A stretch of DNA of 64,000 bases from an uncultured Methanosarcinales archaeon (GCA_964581515.1 CAZOOV010000007.1:12698-76697); one strand, 5' to 3'; counted from the first letter of the stretch, positions 1-46,192 are shown. Notes: generated by a model not told the origin, from the letters alone. Numbers and translations: made by a program.

Positions 1-1419
1 ATACAGATGCTGGTATACAATGGTCTTGGGAAACCTGTATTGAATATGCAGATCGAGATCCTTGGTTGTGATAATTATGTTGATGGAGCTTCATATGCCT
101 CAGGCAATGCAATTTCACAAATGCAGACTGTAGGAGAAGGCGATACTGCGATGTTCGAGATATATTGCGAGGGTCCTATTGCAAATACTAAATTCACATC
201 TGATATAAAGATAAATTATGATACAAAGACACTGGAAGAGACCTTGAGCCATGAGCAGCAGGGCATGATAAGCTCAGAGGTAGGTGGTGTTCTTCTTGGG
301 ATAGTGAATCCAGGGGAAGGAGGAGGAGATGCAGATTACACAGGTCCAACAACATTTGATTTCAGCACAGGGGGAGATGAATGGGTGACAAATGGCACTC
401 CTTCATTTTATAGCGGTTCTGTCACAGGATGTGGGCTTGATGTTGGTGTCGATTCAATGTGCGCAGACCAGTGCAGTACAACAGGCACATGGAATGATAT
501 AATGTGGGGCCCTTCAATTGCATTGACAGGCATGAGTTCAGCAATGCTTTCTGCAGATGTCTGGAAAGAGGATGAGACACAATATGGTTGGTATTATGAT
601 ATTGGCTATATTGTAATATCTACTGATGGAGGTACTACTTATGATACATTGAGTGCACTAGGCTATTCGTCTGGATGGACCACTGTTGAATATGATATTG
701 ATGCTTATCTTGGAGAGACTATCTCTATAGGGGTGTTGTTTAATACACAAGACGGATGCTGTAGCTTTGAGAGCTTCTGCATAACAAATATAGAAGTGAC
801 TGAAGGAGAGCCTTCATGCGATTGCGCTACAGAAGCAGATGTGTGCTGCCCAATAGCAGATTTCTCATGCACTGCAACAGGATGTGAAGGTTACGATGAT
901 GCTGGACCATTGTTCGGGTTTGCCATGTCTTCAGCCAGCGACTGGAGCTGTGAATGGCAAAGCCCTATATATCAATGGAATTGGTATGAATACTGCTATG
1001 ATGGACAGTGGAATGCATATAACAATTGTGATGGAGGGTATCAATGCAACAACTGTGATGTCACATACAGCAATTGCCAGCAAGTTTATGATCAGAATTG
1101 GAATACTGTATGCAATAACTGCGCATGTCCTGACCAGCCTAGCGAATGCATCATGACATGCACTGCTTCCGGATGTCCTGACACCCAGACTGGCCCTAAT
1201 TTCGGTGGCCCTATCAAGTATGCCTCAGACTGGGGTTGTGAATGGGGAGATTATGGTGTCGACTATGAATATTGCAGCGGTGGTAACTGGTATTTTGAGA
1301 ATGGAGACTTAGGCTATTACTGTGGATCATGCGATGAAGCAGGATCCTATTGCAGTTATGTCTATGAACTTCCTGACTGGAATACGTATTGCAATAATTG
1401 TGCATGTCCAATGATGTAG
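1..1419 (+). CDS. Hyper-cysteine-rich secreted protein, 5'-truncated by the window edge; paralogue of the next gene
   Basis: Frame 1 is open from nt 1. Residues IQMLVYNGLGKP...ILGCDNYVDGASY...GEGDTAMFEIYCEGPI align with residues ~80-190 of the downstream 686-aa protein. C-terminal half has repeated Cys/Trp/Tyr/Asn-rich modules (DWSCEW...YCNNCACP occurs twice). Ends TAG 1417-1419. Confidence 0.6.
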   Translation: MQMLVYNGLGKPVLNMQIEILGCDNYVDGASYASGNAISQMQTVGEGDTAMFEIYCEGPIANTKFTSDIKINYDTKTLEETLSHEQQGMISSEVGGVLLGIVNPGEGGGDADYTGPTTFDFSTGGDEWVTNGTPSFYSGSVTGCGLDVGVDSMCADQCSTTGTWNDIMWGPSIALTGMSSAMLSADVWKEDETQYGWYYDIGYIVISTDGGTTYDTLSALGYSSGWTTVEYDIDAYLGETISIGVLFNTQDGCCSFESFCITNIEVTEGEPSCDCATEADVCCPIADFSCTATGCEGYDDAGPLFGFAMSSASDWSCEWQSPIYQWNWYEYCYDGQWNAYNNCDGGYQCNNCDVTYSNCQQVYDQNWNTVCNNCACPDQPSECIMTCTASGCPDTQTGPNFGGPIKYASDWGCEWGDYGVDYEYCSGGNWYFENGDLGYYCGSCDEAGSYCSYVYELPDWNTYCNNCACPMM

Positions 1420-1594
1420 GTCAGTTTTCTCTTTTTTTTCTTATTCTTTAGTTGTTATTTTATCTCTTTATTTTAACTCAAGTTCTAGAAAAATATATAA
1501 ATGACTTAACTTAAAATGGATCATTAATTAGTGATTTTATTATTATTATTATTATATTAAGATATTAGTCAAATTCAAAAAAAGAGGTAGAAAG

Positions 1595-3655
1595 ATGATA
1601 AAAAAACACTTCCCTAATTTCTCAAAATCTAAAAGAGCACAGGCTGCTATGGAATTCTTAATGACCTATGGTTGGGCATTGATGGTGGTTCTTATTGTAA
1701 TTGGAGCATTGGCATTTTTTGGGCTTTTAAATCCTGATAAATTTTTGCCTGACAAAGTTGAGATGGGAACTGGTTTTATTGTGCGATCTGTTGCTGTAGG
1801 AGAAAATGGTATACAAATACTTGTATTTAATGGTATAGGAAATCCTGCTCGTGGTTTTCAGATAGAAGTTGAAGCATGCGAAAATTATGTTGAGGGAGGA
1901 GCTTATGACACAGGTAATTCAATATCAGATATAACTACAATAGGGGAAGGGGAGACTGAAATGTTCACTATTGAATGTACAGGACCTATTGAAGGTACTA
2001 AATTTAAATCAGATTTAACTATGTATTATTCTACAAAAGTACTTTCTGAGACTATTACACATGAGCAATCAGGACTTCTTAATGTTGAAGTAGGAGGAGA
2101 ATTAGATTTAGTAGGAGGAGAATTAGATTTAGGATGTGGTGCATCAAATTGTGGTTCATGTGGACAAGGTGATTGTTCTTCTGGTTGTTCTTGGGACGGT
2201 GCATCATGTAATTCATGCAATCCTTATTCATGTAGTTCATGTACACAAACTGATTGTGAAGCAGCATCTGGCTGTGCTTGGACAGGATCCCAGTGTATAA
2301 TATTGAATTCATTCTCATGTGAATCAGCATCTGACCAAGGGACCTGTGAACAGGCATCCGGCTGTGGATTTAGTTCAACATTTGGTTGTACAAGCTGTGG
2401 AACTGGAAACTGTGGTTCTTGTGATTCTGAAACATGTGGTAGTTCTAGTGAATGTGCTAATCATTGGAGCGGAGCTTGTATGGATGTTGAAGATATGATG
2501 TGGTGTTGGGATATTAATGATGAGAATGGATGCAATGGAAAAGAAGGATGTAGCTGGAGTGGTGGAGGTTGGTGTGATTATTGTACTGAAGGAGTAGGAT
2601 ATGGATGTAATACAGAGGAAGATTGCGAGGAAAGTGGGAGTTATTGGTTAACTAATTATCCATATTCAGATGATGGAACTTATTGTACTGATAAATGGGG
2701 CTATTGTTATTATGGTTATGATGGGGATCAATCAAATTGTGAAGCAGATTCATTATGTGTATGGTATAGTAATTCATGTAGGCCATGTTCTGATGAATGT
2801 TATGACTGTACTTCAAGCAGCTATTGTAATGTAAATCCTTTATGTACATGGGGTACTACATGTACTCCTATTACTGAGACATGTCCAGACCAATGCGGGG
2901 GTTGCACAGATCAGTCTACTTGTGAATCTGCAGGATGTATTTGGGCATCATCTACAAGTGAATGCTGGCTTGATATGACTGGAACTAGTTGTTGGGATCT
3001 CTGGAATGTGCCGGAAGAAGTTTGTGAAGGATCAGGTTGTTATATGAAAGATGATTATTGTGGTTTTTGCAATTCATATGATTTCTGGTATTGTCCAGAT
3101 CAAACAACTTGTGAGGCTGCTGGTGGAGCATGGATGACTGATTATCCTCATTCTTCTAGTGGTGAACAGTGTGTTTATGAGTCTGATCTTTGTTATTATT
3201 CTTATCAAGGTGATGAAGCAGGTTGTGATGGAGACCCTGATTGTGGATGGTATAGCAGTGGATATTGTTATTATTGCGGTAATGGGAATTGTGGAAACTG
3301 CTGGCAACAAGGGATGTGTGAAACCGTAGAAGGCTGTATGTGGGATGGTTCTAGTTGTACTTCATGTTCAAGTTCAGCGTGCGGTGCATGTTATGATCAG
3401 ACTACTTGTGAGAGTGTAAGCTGTATATGGGATTCTGGTTCATCTAGTTGTCTATCATGTGATAGTCAGCATTGTACTAATTGTCCTGATCAGACCAATT
3501 GTGAATCTAGTGATGGATGTTCATGGGACGGTGCATCATGTAATACTTGCAATGAATATAGTTGTTCTGGATGTACACAGACTGACTGTGGATCAACTAC
3601 GGGCTGTTCATGGTCTGGAAGTGTCTGTGAAGTATGCAATCAGTATACATGTTAA
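1595..3655 (+). CDS. Hyper-cysteine-rich secreted protein with archaeal class III (type IV pilin-like) signal peptide; coding pattern continues past an in-frame TAA to 3718
   Basis: N-terminus KRAQAAMEFLMTYGWALMVVLIVIGALAF matches the archaeal prepilin/DUF361-type signal (K/R-x-Q...E-F/L plus hydrophobic helix). About 100 Cys arranged in repeated ~35-aa modules (SGCSWDGASCNSCNPYSCSSCTQTDCE...). A 21-nt exact intragenic DNA repeat (tgggacggtgcatcatgtaat) occurs at ~2184 and ~3526. Confidence 0.65.
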   Translation: MIKKHFPNFSKSKRAQAAMEFLMTYGWALMVVLIVIGALAFFGLLNPDKFLPDKVEMGTGFIVRSVAVGENGIQILVFNGIGNPARGFQIEVEACENYVEGGAYDTGNSISDITTIGEGETEMFTIECTGPIEGTKFKSDLTMYYSTKVLSETITHEQSGLLNVEVGGELDLVGGELDLGCGASNCGSCGQGDCSSGCSWDGASCNSCNPYSCSSCTQTDCEAASGCAWTGSQCIILNSFSCESASDQGTCEQASGCGFSSTFGCTSCGTGNCGSCDSETCGSSSECANHWSGACMDVEDMMWCWDINDENGCNGKEGCSWSGGGWCDYCTEGVGYGCNTEEDCEESGSYWLTNYPYSDDGTYCTDKWGYCYYGYDGDQSNCEADSLCVWYSNSCRPCSDECYDCTSSSYCNVNPLCTWGTTCTPITETCPDQCGGCTDQSTCESAGCIWASSTSECWLDMTGTSCWDLWNVPEEVCEGSGCYMKDDYCGFCNSYDFWYCPDQTTCEAAGGAWMTDYPHSSSGEQCVYESDLCYYSYQGDEAGCDGDPDCGWYSSGYCYYCGNGNCGNCWQQGMCETVEGCMWDGSSCTSCSSSACGACYDQTTCESVSCIWDSGSSSCLSCDSQHCTNCPDQTNCESSDGCSWDGASCNTCNEYSCSGCTQTDCGSTTGCSWSGSVCEVCNQYTC

Positions 3656-3829
3656 TCTTGCTATACTTCATCTGAATGTTCATCTGCAAGCTGTTCATGG
3701 GACGGCAGTTCTTGTTCATAAACAGGAATTTATTTTTTACTTAATTATTTTTTATTTAATTAAGAATTAGTTTTTATTCTCTTATTATTCTTTATTTATT
3801 ATTATTATATGACTTTTTTATTTCTTTTT

Positions 3830-4204
3830 TTATTTTTTCATTTTTTCTATCTTTTCTTCTATCTTCTTCTTCAATTCTTCTTTATCTCCTTTCATGGGTA
3901 TTCCAATTATCTTAATGTTATCAATTTGTCCTATCTTGTCTTTTAGTTTTAGGAAATAACGAAGATCAAAGTCATGCAGAGAACTGATTCCATCGTCGCT
4001 GAGCTTATTGATGTCTTCAATCAACATAACATCATCTATGCCTTCAACTACATCAAGAATAACAATTCTTCCTTCTTCTAGAAATATTTCATCAGGAGAA
4101 TCACATTTGATGAATTCTACATCATCAATAACAAGTTCATCAGCTATTTCTTTAGCTAAGGAGTCGTTTTCTAAGAATTCATTGCCAAAACAGAATACCT
4201 TCAT
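3830..4204 (-). CDS. [NiFe]-hydrogenase maturation endopeptidase (HycI/FrhD family)
   Basis: 124 aa. N-terminal CFGNEFLENDSLA (GN..L.ND motif) and HDFD motif are typical of hydrogenase C-terminal processing proteases. Confidence 0.55.
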   Translation of the reverse strand: MKVFCFGNEFLENDSLAKEIADELVIDDVEFIKCDSPDEIFLEEGRIVILDVVEGIDDVMLIEDINKLSDDGISSLHDFDLRYFLKLKDKIGQIDNIKIIGIPMKGDKEELKKKIEEKIEKMKK

Positions 4205-4422
4205 TTGAGTGTTTGGTCTGGTGCTAGTGTTTTTGATCTCTTCATAGATTCATGTTTCAATACTGCCATCTTAACCAAGTAAACAAATACTCCTGTAAAT
4301 AGAACTAAACTAAGTAATATGACAACACAGATCCAATCTGATAGCAAATGTCCTTCATGCATTATTATAACACCTCATGATTATTCTTAATTGATGATAT
4401 CTTCATTAAATTTTTATATATC

Positions 4423-6378
<1,956 letters not shown>

Positions 6379-6632
6379 TTAATTTCCCTGAGAAATGCCT
6401 TGAAATTTCCCTTCTTTTATAGTATCATCAAAACGGGTTTATTTATAAAGATTTCGTTCTGCTAAAGGCTGTTTTTCTCGTCGAGAAAAGAGAAAATCAA
6501 GATATGGTCATGATGAGCAATCCGCCTGAAAAATAGGGGATTTCCGGAAGCGTTTTTTCGACTGCAGGATATAGCAAAAATTATATAAACCTTCATCTAT
6601 GGGATTACTCACATAATACTATAACCTGCAAA

Positions 6633-7490
6633 ATGGCTAAAGAACATCTTATCAGTTTCATAGACAAACATCAAAAAAGAGGATACGACAGGAAAACACT
6701 TACTTCTATATTGCTTAAACATAAATATCCTTTGACAGAGATAAATGAAGCTTTTGATTCGTTATCGAATAATACATTATCGAATAATGCAGCTAATGGC
6801 TCTTCTTCAGATAGCCCAGCTAAAGTCGATGAAGTCCACAAACAGAACATTGCTTTGAAACATAAGAGCAAAAAGAACGTATTCAGGATACATCTTTTCA
6901 TACTGCTGTGCTTAATCCTTCTTCTTCTTGTTGTTCTGGGAGGCATAATTGTAAATATCAAAGGGAGAAATATAGATCTTGGAGCGGACCATGGACGGCA
7001 GGAGGAGATTCAAGATAAGAAGATTGCAGATAAGGCTGATGCCAAATCAATAGATAAGACAGCATCAAGATCTGACGAGAAAAATGATGATAATATGGCA
7101 TCTCTTGAGAGGCCAGATGCAAAGCCATCAATAATTTGTACTATGATACGTGTTGAAAGCCTTGCAAATAATTTTATGTCTGAATCAGAAAAACTACCTA
7201 TCAGGTGCTTCTTCAGCAATCTTGAAGGCTGCAATCCTGCATCTGTGACTGTGATAGATGGTGAAAGGATATCAGATGTATCAATCAAAGATGAGAAAAG
7301 AGGATACTGCATTCTGAGCATCAATGAATATACCAGCGTAAAAGGCTATACATGCAAGGTTCCAGATGATTTCTGGACCTTGAACAGTGTTGAAGATGAT
7401 ATCATGGCAGGTGCAGATGTCCTTAGGATGATATTAAGCACTCCTGAGGATGATGAACTTAAAGTATATGGCATAAGCTGTAAAATTTAA
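6633..7490 (+). CDS. Hypothetical single-pass membrane protein (tandem paralogue A)
   Basis: Conserved ~40-aa N-terminal domain (EHLISFIDKHQKRGYDRKTLTSILLKHKYPLTEINEAF), low-complexity linker, one TM helix (LFILLCLILLLLVVLGGIIV), Cys-containing C-terminal domain. Confidence 0.5.
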   Translation: MAKEHLISFIDKHQKRGYDRKTLTSILLKHKYPLTEINEAFDSLSNNTLSNNAANGSSSDSPAKVDEVHKQNIALKHKSKKNVFRIHLFILLCLILLLLVVLGGIIVNIKGRNIDLGADHGRQEEIQDKKIADKADAKSIDKTASRSDEKNDDNMASLERPDAKPSIICTMIRVESLANNFMSESEKLPIRCFFSNLEGCNPASVTVIDGERISDVSIKDEKRGYCILSINEYTSVKGYTCKVPDDFWTLNSVEDDIMAGADVLRMILSTPEDDELKVYGISCKI

Positions 7491-7569
7491 TCACTATTCT
7501 AAAATGATTACCAAAACTTATATAAGAAATTGCAGTTGATAGCATAATATAGCTATATAGAGGGATATA

Positions 7570-8565
7570 ATGGTACAAGAACATTTATTGGAATTTATCA
7601 GGAAGAATCTTAACGAGGGTTATGATAAACCTCGATTGACTGAAGTACTTCTAAAGCATGGATATGACCAAGCTGTAATTGATGAAGCCTTTACACAGGT
7701 TGAAGGAGGCACGCCTGCATCACAAGAACCTCAATCAGTCCCTGCTGATGCACAGCAACCAGCAGCTTCTACTGAACAACCTCAACAACAACCAGAACAA
7801 CAAGCACCTGTAGAAGCACAACAAGCATCTGCGGCACCTATTGCACAAGAGTCTGCTGCTCAAGATACCCAACAAGCTCAACAGAATACTGCTGAAGAAA
7901 AACCTAAGAAGAATATATCCAAGATAATCACTTTTGCACTATTAGGAGTTGTAGTAGTAGCAGTTCTTATACTGCTGGCAATGTGGATGATGCCTTCTGA
8001 AAGTGATCCTGATGAGATCATAACTCCTAAACTACCATTGCAACCTGATTCTGATGAGGAACAGGTTGTCAAAGATGATGATGCTGATACAGAACAGTTA
8101 TTATTATGCCCTTCGCTTGATTTAACTAAAAATATATCCCGGAATTCAGAAGGTTCTATATTGTGCTTCCTGAATGCCATTACGGATTGTAGGACAACAA
8201 ATCACACAATATTGGTCGAGAATAAATTACAGACTGTAATAGTGAATGGTTCAAACACTGGTTCAGGAGAAGAAGGCATTTGTCCTGTTGAAATAGAATC
8301 CAGAGCATGCATAATTGAGAATGTCATCCCTCTGACAGGCAACTCTAAGGCTGATGAGATCAGGCTTGATAATGAGAAGAAGAGGATGATGGCAAGTTGT
8401 GCGGTAAATAAGGCTGATTCCAGCACTATCTGTACAATAACATCATCAGAAGTCCAGGAAAATGGTACAGGGATAAGTCTTGTACAGAAGCATGTGGGAT
8501 TCATAGATGGACTGGCTAACCTGGAGTCAGGCCAATATACAAGCTATTCTATTGATTGTCCCTGA
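7570..8565 (+). CDS. Hypothetical single-pass membrane protein (tandem paralogue B)
   Basis: N-terminus EHLLEFIRKNLNEGYDKPRLTEVLLKHGYDQAVIDEAF aligns with paralogue A. Q/P/A-rich linker, TM helix (ITFALLGVVVVAVLILLAMWMM), Cys-containing ectodomain. Confidence 0.5.
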   Translation: MVQEHLLEFIRKNLNEGYDKPRLTEVLLKHGYDQAVIDEAFTQVEGGTPASQEPQSVPADAQQPAASTEQPQQQPEQQAPVEAQQASAAPIAQESAAQDTQQAQQNTAEEKPKKNISKIITFALLGVVVVAVLILLAMWMMPSESDPDEIITPKLPLQPDSDEEQVVKDDDADTEQLLLCPSLDLTKNISRNSEGSILCFLNAITDCRTTNHTILVENKLQTVIVNGSNTGSGEEGICPVEIESRACIIENVIPLTGNSKADEIRLDNEKKRMMASCAVNKADSSTICTITSSEVQENGTGISLVQKHVGFIDGLANLESGQYTSYSIDCP

Positions 8566-8637
8566 AAAATATGAGTTTATCAGTTAACAGTCAAATATTG
8601 TTATTCTCTTCTTAGATTATTATTTAAATTAAGATAT

Positions 8638-8697
8638 ATTAGAATCTAAATTATTAGAATCTGAGTTATTAGAATCCAATCTATTAGAACTTGAATA
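8638..8697. repeat. 4 x 15-bp direct tandem repeat (TATTAGAAYCYNANT) between convergent gene ends
   Basis: tattagaatctaaat / tattagaatctgagt / tattagaatccaatc / tattagaacttgaat, read directly from the sequence. Confidence 0.6.
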
Positions 8698-8714
8698 TCC
8701 CTGAATGAGGGGTT

Positions 8715-9992
8715 TTAGCACCACTTAACCTTCAGGAAATGTGAACTGCAACTGAAGCAAGGATCATAACTTCTGATAAGACGTTCAATCTCAAATACAA
8801 TAGTATCTTTATCTTTCCCTTGGTCTAAAAGTTGTTGTACATACGCTGCTATATCCTCATTGAGATTCCTTAAGAATTGTGCAGTAGGAGTCACGATATT
8901 TGCATATGTGATTATTCCATCCTTATCTGTCTTATATTCATGCCATAATACTCCTCTAGGAGCTTCATTGGCAGCAATACCATGACCTTCTCCAACATTA
9001 ATCTTGGCAATCTCTTCGTGCTCTATCTTGAAATTATCAAGGAGCTTGATGCATTCTTCCCTGTAATGTATCAATTCAAGTGCTTGTGCCATGACATTAT
9101 GGAATGGGTTGTCGCTGGGGAACTTAATAGGTATTGTCTTCATGAATTCTTGAGTCTCTGGGCTGAGTTTTTCCATATTATTATTGAATCTTGCAAGTGT
9201 ACCTACTGAATATGCTTTACCCTCACGTACTACCATATTGCATGAAGAGTAAGGTTCATGGTATTCTTCTACAAAAGAATGGAATTCTTTTTGTTTGTAT
9301 ATCTTACCATCAATCTTCATATCTCCTTGTGATGTTCCGAACTCATCATCACTAACAATAGACATATATTGGGTAGGGCGTTGGAAATCAGGATATTCCA
9401 ATGAAGCGAACAGTTTATTTGTCTCCATTATATCATCTTTTGCCTTGTTAAGCCTGTCTTTTATCTCATCGAGCTTCTCTTGGGTTGGGAAGTGTGTAAA
9501 TCCTCCAATTGTAGGGGATATAGGATGGATTACACGGCCAGTCAACAATGATACCATATCATTGCCTAGTTTCATAAGCCTTAGTGCTCTTGCAATCTCA
9601 TCTTTGAATTTTGAGGCCATCTCAATTGCTGATTTGTAGCCTACATAATCCGGAAGAGCAAGAACATACAAGTGTGCAGCATGACTTCTTATTCTTTCAC
9701 CAATAGTCTGTAGTTGTCTTAATGCAATTGTTTGTTTTGACGCTTTGACACCAAGACAGTTTTCCATAGCCATTATTGCAGCAACATTATGTGCTGAAGA
9801 ACAGATTCCGCAAATCCTTGTAGAGATCTCTTGAGGTTCATTCCATTTTCTGCCTTTGAGAAGACCTTCAAAATATCTGCTTCCTTCAATTGAGCCTAGT
9901 TCGCATCTTTTGACTTTGCCATTATCTATTTCTAGCTCTAGTTTTGCATGTCCTTCGACTTTGGTTATATGATTTAATGTGATTTTTGTCAT
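8715..9992 (-). CDS. hydA: [NiFe]-hydrogenase large (alpha) subunit, group 3b sulfhydrogenase type
   Basis: N-terminal Ni-binding RICGICSSAH (RxCGxCxxxH) and C-terminal DPCFSCSSH (DPCxxCxxH) with short C-terminal extension. Operon order beta-gamma-delta-alpha. Confidence 0.85.
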   Translation of the reverse strand: MTKITLNHITKVEGHAKLELEIDNGKVKRCELGSIEGSRYFEGLLKGRKWNEPQEISTRICGICSSAHNVAAIMAMENCLGVKASKQTIALRQLQTIGERIRSHAAHLYVLALPDYVGYKSAIEMASKFKDEIARALRLMKLGNDMVSLLTGRVIHPISPTIGGFTHFPTQEKLDEIKDRLNKAKDDIMETNKLFASLEYPDFQRPTQYMSIVSDDEFGTSQGDMKIDGKIYKQKEFHSFVEEYHEPYSSCNMVVREGKAYSVGTLARFNNNMEKLSPETQEFMKTIPIKFPSDNPFHNVMAQALELIHYREECIKLLDNFKIEHEEIAKINVGEGHGIAANEAPRGVLWHEYKTDKDGIITYANIVTPTAQFLRNLNEDIAAYVQQLLDQGKDKDTIVFEIERLIRSYDPCFSCSSHFLKVKWC

Positions 9993-10101
9993 TTTATTCT
10001 TGTTTTCCTTTCTTTATCCTTAATATTTTATGATTTTAATTGTATTTTATTTAATACATTATTATTATTTAATTATAATCTTGTTTGATATCTTACTTTC
10101 A

Positions 10102-10872
10102 TTATATTTGTTCTTTCTTCTTGTTTAATGCTTCATGTATCTCAAGTCCTGCAAATGTATTCATATGTTTCATCGCTTCTTCTTTGTCTATTCCTTTTTC
10201 TTTGAGAAGCTTGAAATATTCATCAAATTGAGCATCATCAGTTATCCCTCTGCAACCATAGCATTCAAAACCATTGTTTGTACACACAGCAGAGCATCCT
10301 CCTCTTGTCAGAGGACCAAGACAGATCTTCTTCTCATCGAGAAGACAACCGTTCTCAAATAATCTGCATTCTCTGCATACTGGATCAGGGTAAGCCCTGA
10401 AATCTTTTCCAAGCAATAGCTCTTTGATGAATTTCTTGATTTCATCCCTGTCAGGAGGGCATCCAGGCAGCGCATATTCGACTTTTATGAACTTTGTAAT
10501 AGGTATTGGTTGGCCGACATCCTGCATCTCAGGGAATTTCTTTTCATATTTTAACCTATCAAGATCTTTTTCGTCAGCGTAATGTCTTAATGAAGGTATG
10601 CAACCATGCATAGCGCAACATCCAAGTGCAATCACTACTTTTGATCTTGCTCTTAATTTCTTGACCATCTCTTCGTCATCTTTATTGACTATTGCTCCTT
10701 CTATAAAGCAGATATCAAGAGGACCATCATATTTTTCTCCCATTATGAACCTGAACTCCTTTATATCGACTGCTGAAACTATGTCAAGCAGTTCGTCTTC
10801 ATTGAAGATTACACTTAGGAGACATCCCTGACATCCTGTTACATCATAAAATCCTACTTTAGGTTTTGCCAT
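10102..10872 (-). CDS. hydD: [NiFe]-hydrogenase small (delta) subunit
   Basis: N-terminal GFYDVTGCQGCLLS (proximal-cluster Cys motif), further Cys clusters (GCPPDRDE, CRECRLFENGC), position in operon. Confidence 0.7.
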   Translation of the reverse strand: MAKPKVGFYDVTGCQGCLLSVIFNEDELLDIVSAVDIKEFRFIMGEKYDGPLDICFIEGAIVNKDDEEMVKKLRARSKVVIALGCCAMHGCIPSLRHYADEKDLDRLKYEKKFPEMQDVGQPIPITKFIKVEYALPGCPPDRDEIKKFIKELLLGKDFRAYPDPVCRECRLFENGCLLDEKKICLGPLTRGGCSAVCTNNGFECYGCRGITDDAQFDEYFKLLKEKGIDKEEAMKHMNTFAGLEIHEALNKKKEQI

Positions 10873-10916
10873 TTTCTTTGTTGTTATTATTTTTTGTTTA
10901 TCTTTCTTTCATTTTT

Positions 10917-10978
10917 ACTGGGGCACGGCGAAGATCATAATCAGCCTTTAGCTGATTATCGCCTCAATGGGCGCCAGT
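10917..10978 (-). other. GC-rich structured intercistronic element inside the hyd operon (hairpin-forming)
   Basis: ACTGGGGCACGGCGAAGATCATAATCAGCCTTTAGCTGATTATCGCCTCAATGGGCGCCAGT. Nested complementarity ACTGG/CCAGT, GGCGA/TCGCC, TAATCAGC/GCTGATTA. Strongly GC-enriched relative to flanks. Confidence 0.3.
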
Positions 10979-11008
10979 AAAAATCTCATTTGATATATCC
11001 TTGATCTT

Positions 11009-11836
11009 TTAATCGTCCTTGTAATCCTTCAATTCATCATATCTGAAGACTGCACCGTCAAGACAGGTATATCTTCCATGGATCATGCATCTTCCGCATT
11101 TACCCATTCCGCAATACATCAATCTTTCTGCGCTGATATAGATGTCTTCTTCTTCAAATCCTTTATTCAACAGTATCTCTGCAGTCTTCTCGATCATAAT
11201 CGGTGGACCACAGATGAAAACAACTGTATCATCATTATCATTTATTATCTCTTGTACTTTTTGTGTTACAAATCCTTCTGTCCCATCATAGCATACAGTT
11301 GATTTACTCTCTACTTTGTCAAATGTGATATGCATATTGAATTTTTCTTTCCATATATCCATCTTTTTCCTGAATAATGTATCTTCTGGAGTCCGAAATC
11401 CGAAGAATAAGTATATATCTTTGAAATCTTCTCTGTGTTTTTCAAGAAATTCTACACTTCCTTTAAGTGGAGCGACTCCGCATCCACCACCAATAATGAC
11501 TATATTCTTGCCTTTGAATCTTGCCATTGGATAAGATGTGCCATATGGTCCTCTTACAAGAAGTTCATCTCCTTCTTTTAGGATACCTAGTTTATTTGTT
11601 ACATTTCCTACTTCTCTAATATTGAGTTCTATTGACTTATCATCATATGAGCAGATGGAGATTGGAGCTTCACCTATGCCTGGAAGTGAGCAAAAAACGA
11701 ATTGTCCTGGTTCGTGTTTTAATTTCCAGTCTAGTTTTATCGTGAATGAATCAGCAGTCTCTCTAACATATTCCTTAATTTTTACAGGAATTGGCTTGTA
11801 GGGTGACTTGCTGATAATTGTTTCTTTTGTTGTCAT
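11009..11836 (-). CDS. hydG: Sulfhydrogenase gamma subunit (FAD/NAD(P)-binding, 2Fe-2S)
   Basis: Ferredoxin-NADP reductase-like fold motifs (GPYG, IIGGGCGVAP) and C-terminal CGMGKCGRC 2Fe-2S motif. Operon position. Confidence 0.65.
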   Translation of the reverse strand: MTTKETIISKSPYKPIPVKIKEYVRETADSFTIKLDWKLKHEPGQFVFCSLPGIGEAPISICSYDDKSIELNIREVGNVTNKLGILKEGDELLVRGPYGTSYPMARFKGKNIVIIGGGCGVAPLKGSVEFLEKHREDFKDIYLFFGFRTPEDTLFRKKMDIWKEKFNMHITFDKVESKSTVCYDGTEGFVTQKVQEIINDNDDTVVFICGPPIMIEKTAEILLNKGFEEEDIYISAERLMYCGMGKCGRCMIHGRYTCLDGAVFRYDELKDYKDD

Positions 11837-11892
11837 TTTGTTGTATTTATTTTGTTTGCTTTATTTGTATATTGGATATTAAATAATTGTTA

Positions 11893-12879
11893 TTACATCT
11901 TATTGATTATGTCATCGACCCAGTCAATCCTTGCAGGGCATCCTTCTATACATCTTCCGCACCCTGTACAGAATACTATATCATGCCTGTCTTTGAAATA
12001 TTGTATCTGATGATATATCCTATGCTTAAATCTTGCAAGTTTATTATCTCTGAATATGTGATCTCCAGCAACCCTTGTAAAATGTTTCAATTGACAACTT
12101 GCAGGTTTTCTTATTCTCTCTCCTGTCTTAAGGTCAAAGTTAATATCATCTTCTATAGTGAAACAATGGCAGTTAGGACATAAGAAATTGCACGCACCGC
12201 ATGCAAGGCACTTGTCTGCACCTTTTTCCCAATCTTTACTATCATATTTATCTTTAATGTCTGTTGTCTTTAGTTTTTTCTTGTTTTTTATAATTTTATC
12301 AGCATCTGTTATTGCATTCTCTGTCTCATCGAAGAATTCTTGGAAGTTGCTAATGAATTTCTGCCCTTTTTCTGAGCCTACTTCAATGCCATAAGTGTTG
12401 TCTTTTTCATAAAACATCAGATCAAAAAAGTCTTTTAGTTCGAATGAATTACAGAAACAATAATCATCACCAGATTTGCAATGATAACCTATTAATATTG
12501 AAGCGTCTCTTCTTGCTTTGTAATAAGGATCAACTTGAGTCTTTTCATCCAGGAAGACTATATCTTGATGATATATGCCATTGAGATCGCATCTTCTAAC
12601 TCCAAAGAAGACTCTTGTCTTAAGTGAAATCTTTGCATCAATAATCTTATTTCCATCAAATTTGAAAAGTACCTCTTTAGGATCAAAAAAGAAGGATTTT
12701 ACTGGGTGATATGTCTTTTTTTTGACAGAAATCTCCTCTGCAGAGTTTATTTTCTTGAAAAAGCTCTTGCTTACCAGTTTTTCTTTTTTAGCCTCGACAG
12801 GAGCTATAACATCATTATTATCCATAACTTTAGATATAAAATCGTTAAATTTGCTCTTTTGGAGTAAATATTGTCTCAT
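11893..12879 (-). CDS. hydB: Sulfhydrogenase beta subunit (4Fe-4S)
   Basis: CLACGACNFLCPNCHC and CTGCGRCIEGCP ferredoxin-type motifs. First gene of the hydBGDA order. Confidence 0.7.
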   Translation of the reverse strand: MRQYLLQKSKFNDFISKVMDNNDVIAPVEAKKEKLVSKSFFKKINSAEEISVKKKTYHPVKSFFFDPKEVLFKFDGNKIIDAKISLKTRVFFGVRRCDLNGIYHQDIVFLDEKTQVDPYYKARRDASILIGYHCKSGDDYCFCNSFELKDFFDLMFYEKDNTYGIEVGSEKGQKFISNFQEFFDETENAITDADKIIKNKKKLKTTDIKDKYDSKDWEKGADKCLACGACNFLCPNCHCFTIEDDINFDLKTGERIRKPASCQLKHFTRVAGDHIFRDNKLARFKHRIYHQIQYFKDRHDIVFCTGCGRCIEGCPARIDWVDDIINKM

Positions 12880-14131: not shown

Positions 14132-15064
14132 ATGAAAAACGCAAAAGATTTGAGGAACAAAGGACTTTTACTTGTTTTGATGACTGCACTGATATCAGGC
14201 GTATCTATATTTATCAATAGATTTGGTGTTAAAGGCATTGATTCTACTGTTTTTGTATTTATGAAAAATCTTATAGTATCTATCTTCATATTTGGATTGA
14301 TACTTGGTATAACTCAGCTTAAAAGTTTGAAAGAATTATCTAAAAAGCAGTGGGGGAGCCTCATTGTCGTCGGACTTGTTGGTGGTTCTATCCCTTTTGT
14401 ATTATTTTTTAAGGGTTTGCAGATGAGTAACGGACCTATTGGAAGCCTAATACATAAGACTATGTTCATATTTGTAGCTATTCTTGCAGTATTATTCCTT
14501 AAAGAGAAATTAAGTAAGAAAATATTGATTCCAGCAGTATTGTTGCTTGTTGGAAATTTTTTAATGCTCTATAAAGGAACTCTTGAATTAAGTTTCGGTG
14601 CAGGTATGATCCTTGTCGCTACATTATTCTGGAGTGTTGAGAATGTAATATCAAAGAAACTTCTTGCAACAATAGATGCAAAGATACTAGCATTTGGAAG
14701 ATTATTCTTTGGAAGCATATTCATATCTATATACATGGCATTTACAGGCAAATTTGCACTTATGTCTAGCGTTAGTGTTTCTCAAATAGCATGGATATTG
14801 ATTACAGCAGCATTCTTAGCAGGATATGTATTGACCTGGTACAGCGGACTTAAACATGTAAAAGCGACAACAGCAACTTCAATATTATTGCTGGGAAGCC
14901 CTATAACAACATTACTTGGTTACACTTTCTCAGGAACTGCTGTAAGTGTAGTACAGTTCTTAGGGATGGTTTCTATCTTTGCTGGTGTTGGACTTATGAT
15001 ATATCTTATAGAAAAACAGTCTGAGAAAGTGAATAAGAATCATTTAACAACTTCTATAGCATAG
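14132..15064 (+). CDS. EamA/DMT-family transporter
   Basis: About 10 predicted TM helices in two repeated halves, typical EamA architecture. Confidence 0.55.
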   Translation: MKNAKDLRNKGLLLVLMTALISGVSIFINRFGVKGIDSTVFVFMKNLIVSIFIFGLILGITQLKSLKELSKKQWGSLIVVGLVGGSIPFVLFFKGLQMSNGPIGSLIHKTMFIFVAILAVLFLKEKLSKKILIPAVLLLVGNFLMLYKGTLELSFGAGMILVATLFWSVENVISKKLLATIDAKILAFGRLFFGSIFISIYMAFTGKFALMSSVSVSQIAWILITAAFLAGYVLTWYSGLKHVKATTATSILLLGSPITTLLGYTFSGTAVSVVQFLGMVSIFAGVGLMIYLIEKQSEKVNKNHLTTSIA

Positions 15065-15528
15065 CCATAATGTACTGTTACTTTGTCGCCTACTTTTACA
15101 TCTGGTACAAATTCACTGAATACATTTCTTTTCTTTATGGTTCCATCTTTTTTCTCATATTCTATTGATAGGAATCGATCTTTTTTTCCAGTCACATCAG
15201 CAATATGGACCATGCAGATATCTTTGAATGTAGGCGGAGCAATTGCATATATGCCATGACCATTCTCTATGAATTCATTGTGGTACTTTAGAAAATAATC
15301 CCTCATAAGCTCAGGGTCCCATCGGTCTTTATGGAGTTTTTTTGCAATTATATCAATATTTGGAAATGCTTTTGTAAATACTTTCTCTAATCTTTTACGC
15401 GAAATTGGTTTATTGTGTATTGCAATGTCTTCTAAGTCTTGTAGTTCATCTTCAGTTATCTCTTTTCTTTGCAGTTTTATGTACGTACAAGGAAATGCAT
15501 ATCTTAAAAAATAATTCTCGATTTTCAT
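15040..15528 (-). CDS. HypC-domain protein with ~100-aa N-terminal extension (atypical HypC paralogue)
   Basis: C-terminal ~60 aa (ICMVHIADVTGKK...VPDVKVGDKVTVHYGYAIEVV) aligns with the adjacent bona fide HypC (MCMAIPGKVVDIK...NPDIKVGDYVVVQNKLIL). The otherwise N-terminal Cys is internal here. Confidence 0.4.
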   Translation of the reverse strand: MKIENYFLRYAFPCTYIKLQRKEITEDELQDLEDIAIHNKPISRKRLEKVFTKAFPNIDIIAKKLHKDRWDPELMRDYFLKYHNEFIENGHGIYAIAPPTFKDICMVHIADVTGKKDRFLSIEYEKKDGTIKKRNVFSEFVPDVKVGDKVTVHYGYAIEVVK

Positions 15529-15585
15529 TTTTAATATTTATTCTTATTTTTAATGGTTATTTTTAATCTTCTTCTTAATTTATTT

Positions 15586-15816
15586 TTATTCCTTATTTTC
15601 TATTTCGTGCTTGAATACTTCTTCCCATTGTTTTATTGCTTCTAGTGCTTCTTTTTCAGGAACTGTTTGGAGAATAAGCTTGTTTTGTACAACTACATAA
15701 TCACCCACTTTGATGTCGGGATTCATTATTGTGACTTCTCTTTTTTCACTTCCGTAGTCTACTGTAGCTATACTTTCTTTTATATCTACAACTTTGCCAG
15801 GAATTGCCATGCACAT
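15586..15816 (-). CDS. hypC: Hydrogenase maturation factor HypC
   Basis: 76 aa, N-terminal MCMAIPGKV (MC[LM]AIP signature), small beta-barrel size. Confidence 0.8.
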   Translation of the reverse strand: MCMAIPGKVVDIKESIATVDYGSEKREVTIMNPDIKVGDYVVVQNKLILQTVPEKEALEAIKQWEEVFKHEIENKE

Positions 15817-15847
15817 TTTTTAGAGTGTTTTTTCGTCTCTTGTTGAT

Positions 15848-16171
15848 CTATTCTACATCAACTGATTTCAGGATCACTTTGTCTCCTTCAATTACTGTTG
15901 GAGTGACTCCACATGTTGGACATTGAAAAATTACAACATCATGTTGTCTTTCAACTACTTTTGGTTCTCCTTCATAGCCACATGCGTCGCATTTGACTTT
16001 TGCTGGTGTCTCTGTCATCTCAAAATCAAAGTCAGCTGCATTTTTCATCTGCATCTCTAAATCTTTTTTTGTGATGTTTGCTATCTGTCCTATTTCTATG
16101 TAGGCTTTCTTGACTTTTCCTTGTTCCTTCGCTTTTGATATTATCTCAGCTGCTATATGTATTCCATGCAT
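15848..16171 (-). CDS. hypA: Hydrogenase nickel-incorporation protein HypA
   Basis: 107 aa, N-terminal MHG(I)H Ni site, zinc finger CDACG...CPTCG. Confidence 0.8.
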   Translation of the reverse strand: MHGIHIAAEIISKAKEQGKVKKAYIEIGQIANITKKDLEMQMKNAADFDFEMTETPAKVKCDACGYEGEPKVVERQHDVVIFQCPTCGVTPTVIEGDKVILKSVDVE

Positions 16172-29576: not shown

Positions 29577-30770
29577 ATGATATGTACAATGAAACCCTCA
29601 AAAAATGATTTAATTGAGAGAAGCGAAAGAGATGGAAGAAATAAAATAGTTGGAAGAGATGAAAGGAATGAAATTGATGAAATAAATGAAAGGGATGAAA
29701 AGAAACTTATCGCTGGTTGGTCTTTGACAAATATGTGCAATCTTAAATGCATGCACTGCTATAATGACTCAGGAAAAAGAAAAGACGATGAGCTGAGCAC
29801 AGAGGAAGCATTGCAAGTTGTTGATAAGCTTGCAGAAGCAAATGTTACTGCTGTTAATTTTGGTGGGGGCGAATGCGCTCTAAGGCCTGATTTTCTTGAT
29901 ATATGCAGAGCATTAGTTGAGAAAGGCATTGATATATCTTACACTACAAATGGAACTACTTTAGACAGAATTGAGAATGATTTAGATTTATTTCATGATG
30001 TAGGAGTAAGTATTGATTTTGCAGATTCTGGAAAGCATGATCTTTTCAGAGGGTGTGAAGGTACTTATGAGCAGGCAATTGAAGCTATTGATAAACTTGT
30101 TGCAAATGGAGTGAGCAATGAAATCGTAACATGCTTGACAAAACTAAATTCTAATGAAGAGGAGCTTTCTGGATTATATGATATTGTAAAAGAGCATAAC
30201 GTAGACTCATGGAGGCTTAATAGATATAGAGCAACAGGAAGGGCATTATATAATGATTCTTTTCTTGGTATGAACTCAAATCAATTAAAGCGTGCTTTTG
30301 ATTTTCTTGATTCGTTAAGAGATGATAAGACTTCAACTATCTCAGAGCCTTTGTTCAGAGCAATATATGGTGGTTCATATCAGATTGGAGGAGACCCCTC
30401 AGGACTTTATTCATTCAGGATACAGACCAATGGAGAGGTGACACCATCTGTCTTTTTGTCAAAGTCAGGGGGAAATATACGTGATAAATCTATTGATGAG
30501 ATAATGCAATCTGATGTCTTCAAAGACATAAGAGAGAGAGAAGCAGTTGGAAAATGTGTTGGATGTAATGAATACTACCATTGCCAAGGAGGAGACGCAG
30601 GTATCTCGCTGTTGATGAATGGACATTATAATGGGCCTGATCCTATGTGCTTCAAAGACACATCACTGCCTAAAAATAAGGATGTTATTAGACGAGTAAG
30701 TGAAGATCCAAATGTACATGAGCTATACTTATGTACACTCTATATTGCAGGAGGCAATCAACATGGCTGA
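29577..30770 (+). CDS. Radical SAM enzyme with C-terminal SPASM/twitch-like Cys cluster
   Basis: NMCNLKCMHC (Cx3Cx2C), FGGGECALRPD (GGEP-like), C-terminal CVGCNEYYHCQGG...C. N-terminal 45 aa R/E-rich repetitive. Confidence 0.75.
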   Translation: MICTMKPSKNDLIERSERDGRNKIVGRDERNEIDEINERDEKKLIAGWSLTNMCNLKCMHCYNDSGKRKDDELSTEEALQVVDKLAEANVTAVNFGGGECALRPDFLDICRALVEKGIDISYTTNGTTLDRIENDLDLFHDVGVSIDFADSGKHDLFRGCEGTYEQAIEAIDKLVANGVSNEIVTCLTKLNSNEEELSGLYDIVKEHNVDSWRLNRYRATGRALYNDSFLGMNSNQLKRAFDFLDSLRDDKTSTISEPLFRAIYGGSYQIGGDPSGLYSFRIQTNGEVTPSVFLSKSGGNIRDKSIDEIMQSDVFKDIREREAVGKCVGCNEYYHCQGGDAGISLLMNGHYNGPDPMCFKDTSLPKNKDVIRRVSEDPNVHELYLCTLYIAGGNQHG

Positions 30771-31848
30771 TGATAATAAGACGGTAGACAATAAGAAGAC
30801 AGCAGGCTTAGAAGATGTTACGAGAGGAGGGACAAAAGATAATGACAAAGGAAGGAAAGCACTTCCTAAACTAGACCTAAATATAACAAACAACTGCAAT
30901 TATAGGTGTGTGCATTGTGCTTTTGATTCTGGGCAGTGGGCTCTTCCTGAGCTTTCTCTTGAAGAACTCCGGAAGATACTTACCGATACAAGAGAATTAG
31001 GGGGAGAAAGGTTTGACATCACCGGTGGAGAGCCTCTTGTAAGAAAAGACGTAGGAGAAATAATAAGCATTGGAAAAGAATTAGGATACAAGATTGAACT
31101 TGTTACAAATGGTTCACTCCTGACTCTTGAGAAAATTGTTGATTTTAAGGCAAGAGGGCTTGATTCAATTGCAATGAGCATCGATGGTCCTGATTATGAG
31201 ACCTACAGTAGGATAAGGCTTGTTGATGAAGCAACTTATCAAAAGGTTATGAAGGCAGTTGATGATGTGCTTGATAATGATATTGCACTCAAGATAAATA
31301 CTGTTGCTTTTCAGTCAAACTACAAATCCATTCCTGAAATAACGAAATGGTGCATCGATAAAGGTGTTGCAGAACATGGCCTATATTATTATACTGCAAT
31401 TGGTAGAGGAGAAAGAAATAATGAACTTAGTGTGGATCCTAATGGATGGATTGATTTTGTAAGAAATGAATTGTATCCCTTGAGCGACAGGATGAAGATA
31501 TCATGTGAATTCCCTTTCATAGGTGATGATAAATTGCAGGACAAGGAAACAAGATGTCTTGCTGATGCTGAACAATACCACCTCCAGATACTTCCTGATG
31601 GAAATGTGTATCCCTGCGCAATAATGGCTTCATATCAATTGCCTATTGCAAATCTCCATGAAATTTCTGTTAAGGATATATGGAAAAATAAAGATATGTG
31701 GGATAATTATTGGACAAAAGCAAATGGAATATTTTGTGAGAATAAAGGATGCTGTGTTGATTTTAGTGATTCTTTTGACGTCGCAAAATATGATGATTGT
31801 AAGTTTGTCTGTCCACTTAGGAAATTCTATCCAGGTGATATAGTATGA
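30763..31848 (+). CDS. Radical SAM enzyme with C-terminal SPASM-like Cys cluster (paralogue)
   Basis: NNCNYRCVHC, TGGEPLVRKD, C-terminal CENKGCCVDF...CKFVCP. ATG overlaps upstream stop (ATGGCTGA, 8-nt overlap). Confidence 0.75.
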   Translation: MADDNKTVDNKKTAGLEDVTRGGTKDNDKGRKALPKLDLNITNNCNYRCVHCAFDSGQWALPELSLEELRKILTDTRELGGERFDITGGEPLVRKDVGEIISIGKELGYKIELVTNGSLLTLEKIVDFKARGLDSIAMSIDGPDYETYSRIRLVDEATYQKVMKAVDDVLDNDIALKINTVAFQSNYKSIPEITKWCIDKGVAEHGLYYYTAIGRGERNNELSVDPNGWIDFVRNELYPLSDRMKISCEFPFIGDDKLQDKETRCLADAEQYHLQILPDGNVYPCAIMASYQLPIANLHEISVKDIWKNKDMWDNYWTKANGIFCENKGCCVDFSDSFDVAKYDDCKFVCPLRKFYPGDIV

Positions 31849-32546
31849 ATTATCCTGGTAATAAGCAAGGCAGGCATCCTTTGATTGTATTCGAAGGGCT
31901 TGATTGTACTGGCAAGACTAGCATTGCTACAAGAGTAGCTGAGATGTTAAGTGATGATAAGGATAATAAAAATGATGAGAGTGATAAAAGAGAAGTAATG
32001 TATAATAAAACAAGACAAAGAATATCGAAGAAATTTCCAGTAGGTTTAGCATATCTAACAGATGAGTTAATCAATGATTATCTTGTTATGAGGCCTAATT
32101 TGAATCATAGATCTGTTATTCAAGATAGATCTTTTTTCTCTACACTCACATATAATGCAGCAATAACAGGTAGTAAGGTGTTAAGAGCTTCAAAATATTT
32201 GTTTACAAAACCAAATCTTGTTGTTTATCTTACAGCGAGTGATGAAGTTAGAGCTGATAGAAGTGTAGAGAGAGGAAGACAAGGGTTTACTAGGATATTT
32301 GATGACCTTGAGCTTGCACATAGGGTAGAAGAGGAGTATAAAGAGATGTTAAGTGATTATAATCATATTATTGTTGATACTAGTAAATTGAGATTAGATG
32401 AAAGTATTGAAATTGTACAGGAGAAAGTAGAGGATTATTTGAGCAATTATCAAAGCAATCGATTAAAATTTTTTACTCTTAATTTTAACTCTTTTTCAGT
32501 AGATACGCATACGAATTTTTATAAATTACAGGAGGATTTGATCTAA
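31845..32546 (+). CDS. P-loop kinase, thymidylate/deoxynucleoside kinase-like
   Basis: Walker A FEGLDCTGKTS, LTASDEVRADRSVERGRQG lid-like region. 4-nt overlap with upstream gene. Confidence 0.55.
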   Translation: MNYPGNKQGRHPLIVFEGLDCTGKTSIATRVAEMLSDDKDNKNDESDKREVMYNKTRQRISKKFPVGLAYLTDELINDYLVMRPNLNHRSVIQDRSFFSTLTYNAAITGSKVLRASKYLFTKPNLVVYLTASDEVRADRSVERGRQGFTRIFDDLELAHRVEEEYKEMLSDYNHIIVDTSKLRLDESIEIVQEKVEDYLSNYQSNRLKFFTLNFNSFSVDTHTNFYKLQEDLI

Positions 32547-32547
32547 G

Positions 32548-34308: not shown

Positions 34309-34381
34309 CAATATAATAAACACCATCCATGTAGTTATAATAAGCAAAAAATACATAAATGGTACGACTTGTTTCTTTTTT

Positions 34382-44538: not shown

Positions 44539-44585
44539 AATAGCTCAATTCTTAGTTAATTTTGTCACATTTAAGTAGTAACAGA

Positions 44586-44601
44586 CCGAAACATTTATAA
44601 A
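44586..44601 (+). promoter_or_regulatory. Archaeal BRE/TATA promoter (CGAAACATTTATAAA), leaderless start at ATG 44630
   Basis: Same 15-mer recurs at 47178-47192. ATG at 44630 lies ~26 nt downstream of TATA centre. Confidence 0.4.
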
Positions 44602-44629
44602 TCGATTTATGATTAGAACATATACTAAA

Positions 44630-46191: not shown

Positions 46192-46192
46192 A

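Follow-up and report, generated by a model that had tools for sequence, protein, structure and literature searches.

At the left end of the 64,000-nucleotide stretch of DNA analysed here (GCA_964581515.1 CAZOOV010000007.1:12698-76697, from an uncultured Methanosarcinales archaeon; the whole stretch is referred to below as the window), positions 1-3721 hold two genes, p1 and p2, both on the (+) strand and in the same orientation. They raise the question of what kind of protein would join a prepilin-type N-terminus to a long cysteine-rich tail. An earlier note, made from the sequence alone, had described a tandem pair of hyper-cysteine-rich proteins with a class III (prepilin-type) signal peptide, and had suggested a surface adhesin or a metal-binding fibre. 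The core of that reading holds: a class III signal is joined to an unusual Cys-rich array, and the protein probably serves at the surface or in adhesion in a DPANN-like archaeon. We consider it probable that p1, p2 and a third paralogue, gene A, encode modular type IV pilins and belong to a DPANN archaeon of the Woesearchaeota type. The motif, the fold, the sequence family, the operon context of relatives, the anatomy of the repeat units and the swapping of modules were all observed; that these proteins are also cleaved, incorporated into filaments, disulfide-bonded and adhesive is what we infer.

Three tandem paralogues share an N-terminal module

The locus comprises three tandem paralogues, so that the pair of the earlier note, although correctly seen as adjacent paralogues, turns out to be part of a trio whose third member, gene A, lies to the left of the window. 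Gene A (440 aa) occupies positions 6833-8155 of a 128-kb contig from a public Joint Genome Institute (JGI) assembly, here called L001, on which window position 1 corresponds to 8407; it ends 41 nt upstream of p1 and combines the same pilin module with a MAM-like domain and one Cys/Tyr module. p1 is read in frame 1 at 1-1419 and is open at the left window edge, where the last 472 codons and the stop of a 542-codon gene are visible. The gene begins 210 nt before the left window edge, and its class III signal (...DSKRAQAAMEFLMTYGWALLVVLIVIGALAF, as in p2) and helix are also outside the window. The full-length protein (P0038, 542 aa) is uninterrupted in a 318-kb assembly. p2 spans 1595-3655, TAA stop included, and encodes 686 aa; an identical protein (P0001) is present on four contigs from independent assemblies, and the proteins of the locus are at least 99% identical between independent assemblies.

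Between the full-length proteins p1 and p2, identity is 64% over 169 aa and no alignment extends past this point, so that the domain they share, given earlier as ~190 aa, is closer to ~170 aa. The part of the p1 pilin head that lies inside the window (1-294, aa 71-168 of the full protein) is 54% identical to p2 aa 73-170 over 98 aa. Beyond the module the two proteins differ in architecture as well as in composition. p2 has 86 Cys overall (12.5%), 84 of them within aa 181-686 (16.6% of 506 aa), and well deserves to be called hyper-cysteine-rich, whereas p1, with 7.2% Cys, does not.

The shared module is an archaeal type IV pilin

The N-terminal ~170 aa of these proteins is more than the signal peptide that the earlier note had seen there: it forms an entire archaeal type IV pilin module, to which thousands of stand-alone pilins are homologous. 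p2 opens with MIKKHFPNFSKSKRAQAAMEFLMTYGWALMVVLIVIGALAFFGLL, and its residues 13-41 read KRAQAAMEFLMTYGWALMVVLIVIGALAF. The predicted class III cut falls after Ala15, between nucleotides 1639 and 1640, separating the leader peptide MIKKHFPNFSKSKRA (1595-1639) from the mature N-terminus QAAMEFLMTYGWALMVVLIVIGALAFFGLL (1640-1729), which contains Gln at +1, Glu at +5 and the hydrophobic alpha-1 helix. The motif ...SKSKRA/Q (the slash marks the predicted cut) thus presents a basic leader, Gln+1 and Glu+5, followed by a 30-residue hydrophobic stretch, and QAAME occurs in all three paralogues (p2, p1 as P0038, and gene A). A regular-expression search for class III signals found p2 alone inside the window and only the three paralogues on the wider contig. 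Pilins of Methanococcus maripaludis that are processed by EppA have a short leader ending in a small residue, with conserved Gln+1 and Glu+5 (PMC3875500). We assign the p2 signal to class III, in agreement with the earlier note, because its motif fits this rule, because the motif is invariant in the family and because relatives are encoded in type IV pilus operons. The ~30-residue hydrophobic stretch and the conserved Q+1 and E+5 led us to reject a Sec-type signal.

In an alignment of 21 modules (A1), Q16, A17, A18, E20, F21, L22, T24, Y25, G26 and W27 are invariant, as is the head cysteine C128. An AlphaFold2 (AF2) model based on A1 shows a helix at residues 12-41 followed by a beta-sandwich of 7-8 strands, located between residues 54 and 166, with a mean predicted local distance difference test score (pLDDT) of 87.3. 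In p2 this predicted head corresponds to 1730-2104 and includes the conserved Cys pair C95/C128.

Searches with these sequences revealed a large family in which the module most often stands alone. The other matches to full-length p2 were confined to its N-terminal quarter or so in 25 of 25 cases, their C-termini being Laminin_G_3 (LamG, PF13385), beta-helix, GLUG, MAM, TSP3 or Gly-rich. At E <= 1e-5 the A1 profile matched 7,939 proteins or more. Among the 120 best, the majority are 141-170 aa long, which corresponds to the module on its own, and many of these 120 carry the JGI label 'UPF0333 family', while their NCBI names refer to Nanoarchaeota, Woesearchaeota or Nanoarchaeia. The module of the locus is 33-49% identical to the stand-alone pilins.

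A scan of GTDB species representatives with the module gave at least 586 matches, from which 80 loci were kept (p2 itself found no relative in the same set). All 80 are archaeal metagenome-assembled genomes, mostly labelled Woesearchaeota, Nanoarchaeota or Nanoarchaeia, with about 12 labelled uncultured Methanosarcinales. They contain 115 motif-bearing genes with a median mature length of 145 aa; among the 114 complete ones, 105 encode 200 aa or fewer and none more than 400 aa. Positions upstream of the invariant Gln played no part in gene selection, and yet position -3 is K/R in 104 of the 115, position -2 is K/R in 110, and position -1 is G/A/S in all 115. Leaders in the family are mostly 4-8 residues long.

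Relatives in pilus operons and membership in a filament

A secretion ATPase homologue was detected by tblastn within the 6-kb flanks of 30 of the 80 related loci, mostly 2.3-3.5 kb upstream of the pilin and on the same strand. At one of these (L036, on a 599-kb Woesearchaeota contig, 1893-9739), genes for a T2SSE ATPase (E 1.5e-34) and two T2SSF platform proteins (E 2.6e-14 and 1.1e-15) precede those for three tandem pilins of 152, 159 and 152 aa. These have four Cys each and the signals KRS/QAAMEF, KRG/QAAMEF and KRG/QIAQEF. Archaeal type IV filaments of 'system 1', which includes the Epd pilus and is reported for methanogens, Thermococcales and DPANN, have as their signature an ATPase accompanied by two platform genes (bioRxiv 10.64898/2026.04.22.720090). 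The module shared by the three paralogues is thus homologous to pilins that are encoded, as at L036, within operons. The three L036 pilins are followed by a repetitive protein of 896 aa with a hydrophobic, signal-like N-terminus and no Pfam match, possibly an adhesin.

Homology to pilins leaves room for a different use of the module, in which p1, p2 and gene A would be surface proteins anchored through their class III N-termini and never polymerised, held either by a membrane anchor or in a short pseudopilus or bindosome-like raft, with the passengers forming part of the cell coat. Archaeal class III signals are also found on non-pilin substrates, such as the sugar-binding proteins of Sulfolobus (the bindosome). 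The genes stand alone, far from pilus machinery, as do those of the modular relatives P0004 and P0006, and the passengers exceed the pilin module in size by a factor of 3-4. We nevertheless regard this alternative as unlikely: the whole globular pilin head is retained, its 33-49% identity to stand-alone pilins and its homology to operon-encoded ones speak for a pilin, stand-alone pilin genes remote from the machinery are common and normal in archaea (PMC4858521), and bacterial modular pilins of similar build do polymerise (PMC8179133).

Several observations weigh against the assignment of the three proteins to type IV pilins. No Pfam or NCBIfam pilin or class III model, PF04021 (Class_IIIsignal) included, matched the 60-aa N-terminus of p2 (E <= 10), the module (E <= 10 for Pfam, <= 0.1 for NCBIfam) or the whole protein (E <= 1), and the DUF361 comparison that the earlier note had proposed likewise gave no match; TcpD_dom and DUF4064, both below threshold and hydrophobic, were the only library matches at the N-terminus. 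Nor did any bacterial prepilin-type model of Pfam or NCBIfam match, IPR012902 itself being outside the libraries searched. The Foldseek comparison of the modelled head with PDB was weak, the Pyrobaculum pilus 8fk7 appearing at rank 3 (E 2.8e-3) amid generic Ig-like folds, and so was the PDB sequence-profile match to the filament subunit 8q30 (E 0.14). p1, p2 and gene A lie outside any pilus operon, and the ~80 kb of contig inspected (the window, 8.4 kb upstream and 7.5 kb downstream) contained no T2SSF, Peptidase_A24 or archaeal-type ATPase gene, with no pilus genes in the ~7.5 kb to the right of the window; the sole related gene encodes a bacterial-type GspE/PilB/ComGA-like ATPase at 38785-40497 (-), 35 kb away. 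To these may be added the in-frame TAA codons in p1 (in one assembly) and ahead of the last p2 unit, which make decay possible, and the assumption of extracellular disulfides in what appears to be an anaerobic fermenter (NiFe hydrogenase, PFOR). The missing PF04021 match may be explained by the shortness of the model together with the HMMER filters. We place the module among the pilins because of its motif, fold class and gene context, and not because of library models; the signal is supported in the same way, by motif, structure and gene context.

p2 carries an array of small cysteine-rich units

At the junction of pilin module and passenger, p2 has a linker (2089-2130) in which AGTAGGAGGAGAATTAGATTT occurs twice in tandem and encodes VGGELDL twice (repeat family D10). 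This exact 21-nt duplication is the only clearly recent event that we see. The array itself (2135-3652) comprises 16 alignable units of 26-41 aa (aa 181-680) and the start of a 17th (CNQYTC), in line with the repeat modules described earlier, and the units follow the consensus C-x4-C-x2-C-x-[DQ]Q[TG]x-C-E-x3-G-C-x-W-[DS]-G-x2-C. Ten units have six Cys and six have four, with odd counts in none of the 16, and the array holds 19 C-x2-C motifs. Units 4-7 and 9-12 (2480-2785 and 2966-3274) form a super-repeat of ~100 aa.

The earlier note had taken an exact 21-nt repeat as a sign of ongoing duplication or gene conversion. The repeat is real: TGGGACGGTGCATCATGTAAT lies at 2192-2212 in unit 1 and at 3524-3544 in unit 15, encoding WDGASCN in both, and by our own arithmetic the chance expectation of such a repeat in 3.7 kb is ~1e-6. 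At the DNA level the units have diverged, with 67% identity in the best pair (units 1 and 15), 63% for units 7 and 12, 61% for units 2 and 16 and a median of 49%; we therefore regard the array as old and reject recent unit duplication. The 21-nt identity falls within the most similar unit pair and can count as no more than weak evidence for a short tract of conversion.

The array matched no family in Pfam or NCBIfam, and an exhaustive HMMER search of 1.84 billion representative proteins retrieved only seven relatives (E 7e-26 to 1e-4), which bears out the suggestion that it is undescribed. These relatives are long proteins with tandem four-Cys units (C-x8-C-x4-GCxW-x5-C), without C-x2-C and without Pfam models over their repeats; their N-termini look, by eye, like bacterial signal or lipoprotein sequences, and the one with a source name comes from an Oligoflexales bacterium. 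A profile from an alignment of four units found zero matches in a set of 5.8 billion proteins, for which composition filters are the probable cause. At the level of sequence, then, the p2 unit is a repeat with no described family in current domain databases.

An alignment of p2 units 13-16 (3266-3652) with the bacterial segments (A2) yielded an AF2 model with a pLDDT of 89.8 and a predicted template modelling score (pTM) of 0.72, in which each unit consists of short helices followed by a beta-hairpin. Foldseek found nothing significant for this model in PDB or BFVD. Of eight weak PDB matches, the top one was the C-terminal domain of a trypanosome variant surface glycoprotein (VSG; 5m4t, 31 residues, 2.1 Å, E 2.6), and others were chains of plexin/semaphorin complexes (29-46 aligned columns, E 5-10), plausibly their PSI domains, and three chains of a reovirus sigma1 structure (E 5.5-8.1). 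When the A2 sequence profile was compared with PDB, eight of eight matches were trypanosome VSGs (E 0.2-8), aligned on the Cys/Trp spacing of the C-terminal domain. We treat this likeness as one of build, that of a small disulfide-locked extracellular spacer, and not as membership.

A cysteine array of this density could instead form a metal-binding fibre, as the earlier note had proposed, of a metallothionein-like or zinc-ribbon-like kind. The 16.6% Cys and the 19 C-x2-C motifs would suit such a role, and in an anaerobic-looking organism (hydrogenase, PFOR) extracellular thiolates could persist. Other features of the units make metal binding very unlikely. Their Cys number is even throughout, His amounts to 0.7% of p2, and p2 is rich in aromatic residues (W 3.5%, Y 5.1%); conserved Trp and Gly and abundant Trp and Tyr are atypical of metallothioneins. 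The bacterial relatives keep just the four-Cys core, lacking C-x2-C, the confident alpha/beta model was obtained without metal, and the domains that matched best, if weakly, are extracellular and disulfide-bonded (VSG C-terminal domain, PSI-containing chains). Four conserved Cys are present in the family's own stand-alone pilins as well. p2 also gave no match to intracellular metallothionein-like families, and it combines an N-terminal export or anchor signal with units that are predicted to be ordered and alpha/beta. These features argue for disulfide-stabilised mini-domains. A multihaem cytochrome or Fe-S protein was rejected separately, given the scarce His and the predicted extracellular location.

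In-frame stops in p2 and p1

The p2 gene stops at a TAA (3653-3655) inside what would be a 17th unit, so that the end at 3718 given by the earlier note reads through an in-frame stop. The region 3653-3721 consists of this TAA, 21 further codons and a second TAA (3719-3721), and the sequence reads ...CNQYTC, stop, SCYTSSECSSASCSWDGSSCS, stop (repeat families D3 and D7). The 21 codons after the first stop keep all four Cys, the Trp and their spacing, and a T-rich, terminator-like tract occurs only 3' of the second TAA. Another assembly contains a near-identical p2 variant (P0034) that likewise stops at residue 686. The simplest reading is that the TAA at 3653 is a recent nonsense mutation, for example from TCA or TAY, and that 3719-3721 is most likely the ancestral end of the gene. 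Read-through of the stop codon is an alternative for 3653-3721.

The p1 gene is interrupted in the JGI assembly, where an in-frame TAA is accompanied by a neighbouring G-to-V substitution, G(stop)DVIQ compared with GEDGIQ, at L001 8398-8406; the TAA sits 7-9 nt left of the window and is either a strain polymorphism or an assembly error. There are thus two in-frame TAA codons, in adjacent paralogues. Taken together, the loss of the last p2 unit and the p1 stop with its substitution, seen in one assembly just left of the window, could mean that the genes are decaying pseudogenes or remnants of a former adhesin island. This we consider highly improbable, since open reading frames of 686, 542 and 440 codons are intact in a genome of 37% GC, sequences agree at 99% or better across independent assemblies, and p1 is continuous in the 318-kb assembly (P0038). 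The truncation costs p2 one of 17 units, while the Cys, Trp and motif positions are all conserved.

Passengers are exchanged at a conserved chromosomal site

The passengers of p1 and gene A are of another kind from that of p2. In p1, the pilin head is followed by a probable MAM-like beta-jelly-roll at 337-804, with approximate boundaries, since the weak Pfam match, below the Pfam threshold, covers 586-801 only. PF20773 (InhA-like_MAM) matched p1 (E 4e-4), gene A (E 1.7e-3) and the relative P0006 (E 2e-5), each time in the same region of the profile, and the MAM-like region gave a PDB profile match to InhA (4yu5, E 0.12). Cys/Tyr/Trp-rich modules of ~95 aa ending in CNNCACP come next, two in p1 (808-1416, divided at about 808-1131 and 1132-1416; repeat families D9, D12 and D14), one in gene A and two in P0006. 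They are a different family from the p2 units.

Two of the better p2 matches, P0007 and P0008 (module identity 43-44% and 37%), are encoded on a contig from another metagenome, L084, which is syntenic with the locus: SepF, NYN, Pyr_redox, ..., RimB-like, RimK, the pilin genes, ..., GyrB. The flanking proteins are well conserved between the two (RimK 74%, GyrB 82%, NYN 82% and RimB 66% identity), with the exception of the Pyr_redox homologue (39%), whereas the pilins at the site share 37-44% identity over their N-terminal 150-175 aa only. Each of the two Woesearchaeota genomes has three modular pilins in the RimK-GyrB interval (L084 6373-13952; L001 6833-12061), and the passengers on L084, one with Gly_rich_2, one with Laminin_G_3 and a third of another kind, are unrelated to those of the locus. 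The comparison gives direct evidence that passengers are exchanged, and that divergence is fast, while the backbone is conserved; such a pattern is expected for surface recognition proteins.

A further, tentative possibility is that DPANN archaea of the Woesearchaeota type keep the RimK-GyrB interval as an island of carrier-pilin genes whose passengers are exchanged faster than the flanks evolve, providing changeable recognition modules on Epd-like pili for contact with partner cells. The p2 array would then be an undescribed extracellular domain family with a build like that of the VSG C-terminal domain, shared only with a few bacterial proteins, one of them from Oligoflexales.

A proposed route to the cell surface

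Each of the three proteins would begin with a carrier pilin module (KRA/QAAMEF, an alpha-1 helix of ~30 residues and a head with a disulfide), to which a short linker rich in Gly attaches an unrelated passenger. The p2 passenger would form a rod of mini-domains, 16 at present and ancestrally 17, with 2-3 disulfides presumably locking each of them. The leader would be removed by a prepilin (class III signal) peptidase. The helix of the module could then be taken up by the machine of one ATPase and two platform proteins (system 1, Epd-like) by which the family's stand-alone pilins are assembled, and the bulky passenger would come to lie at the filament tip or sparsely along the filament, where it may serve as an adhesin or a spacer facing a surface or a partner cell.

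The source organism and neighbouring genes

The source organism is an archaeon, and the window encodes ribosomal protein S3Ae; no tRNA and no Rfam match were found in the window. Directly downstream of p2 is a gene for a weakly hydrogenase-maturation-protease-like protein (3830-4204, -), and a cluster of four genes at 8715-12879 (-) encodes the large, small, NAD-binding and Fe-S subunits of an NiFe hydrogenase. HypA/HypC genes are present at 15040-16000 (-) and pyruvate:ferredoxin oxidoreductase (PFOR) at 47743-51261. The hydrogenase cluster, the Hyp genes and PFOR point to an anaerobic fermentative lifestyle.

A stretch with strong positive GC skew (29577-35395, +) encodes two radical-SAM/SPASM proteins, a thymidylate-kinase-like protein, a fusion of AAA_33 with AP-endonuclease-2 and a DUF362/4Fe-4S protein, and may be a nucleotide or cofactor modification cluster. 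The bacterial-type ATPase at 38785-40497 has a C-terminal CPDC...CPTC motif, no platform gene beside it and uncharacterised neighbours; around the Walker region it is ~30% identical to the archaeal-type ATPases that adjoin related pilins. Next to it, at 42772-46948 (+), is a gene for a protein of 588 aa, in which an acidic N-terminus rich in Ser is combined with about five Ig-like repeats, each of ~95 aa (faint Big_7). It is followed by genes for three paralogues of ~245-285 aa that appear coiled-coil-like and have no family match.

Significance

How DPANN archaea recognise their partners, and by what means they attach to them, is an open question; to our knowledge no member of the Woesearchaeota is in culture. 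The locus supplies testable candidates for surface recognition. It also indicates that an unannotated pilin family of at least 7,900 proteins can serve as carrier for many different surface modules. In addition, it defines a compact Cys-rich repeat outside current domain databases. These findings offer leads for annotation, for structural work and for the choice of targets in metaproteomes or enrichment cultures.

Comparison with known systems

The Epd pilins of M. maripaludis resemble the module described here in their short basic leader with a small residue at its end, Gln+1, Glu+5 and hydrophobic helix. As in Epd system 1, relatives of the module are encoded behind an ATPase and two platform genes, and many members of the family bear UPF0333 labels (JGI). 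Unlike the Epd pilins, the module has no PF04021 match, and its motif, QAAMEFLMTYGWA, is lineage-specific and almost invariant. The major pilin of M. maripaludis has 60-75 aa, whereas the proteins of this locus have a larger head and a passenger of 270-510 aa.

For the array, the small extracellular, Cys-rich domains of Trypanosoma brucei VSG (the C-terminal domain) and of plexins and semaphorins (PSI) offer a comparable build of helix and beta-hairpin, with the spacing C-x8-C-x4-GC-x-W-x4-C in the case of VSG. The matches fall short of significance (sequence E 0.2-8, fold E 2.6-10), with no Pfam match at E <= 10, and the p2 units differ in that they often have two extra Cys and are arranged in a tandem array of 16-17 units. 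The likeness probably arose by convergence, or else is too remote for a verdict. The only detectable relatives of the array are the proteins from Oligoflexales and related uncultured bacteria (P0027-P0033), with their long tandem arrays of four-Cys units. These proteins, which are unannotated and 25-35% identical to p2, differ from it in having what appear, by eye, to be lipoprotein- or Sec-type N-termini, no pilin module and four, not six, Cys per unit.

The closest parallel to the architecture as a whole is provided by the modular pilins of bacteria, in which a full pilin module is joined through a short linker to a grafted module unrelated to pilus biology. In Streptococcus sanguinis, PilB has a vWA module and PilC a ConA-like lectin module, and PF13385 lectin modules are common among bacterial modular pilins (Raynaud et al. 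2021, PMC8179133). A PF13385 lectin-like passenger likewise recurs in the archaeal relatives of the present proteins. The bacterial carriers have the IPR012902 N-methylation motif, whereas here the carrier is an archaeal class III Q+1 module of a different lineage, and the p2 passenger is without any domain signature. The bacterial survey did not cover archaea (PMC8179133), and the locus extends the 'modular pilin' principle from bacteria to this domain: it would represent not a new kind of machine but the archaeal counterpart of a known kind of system.

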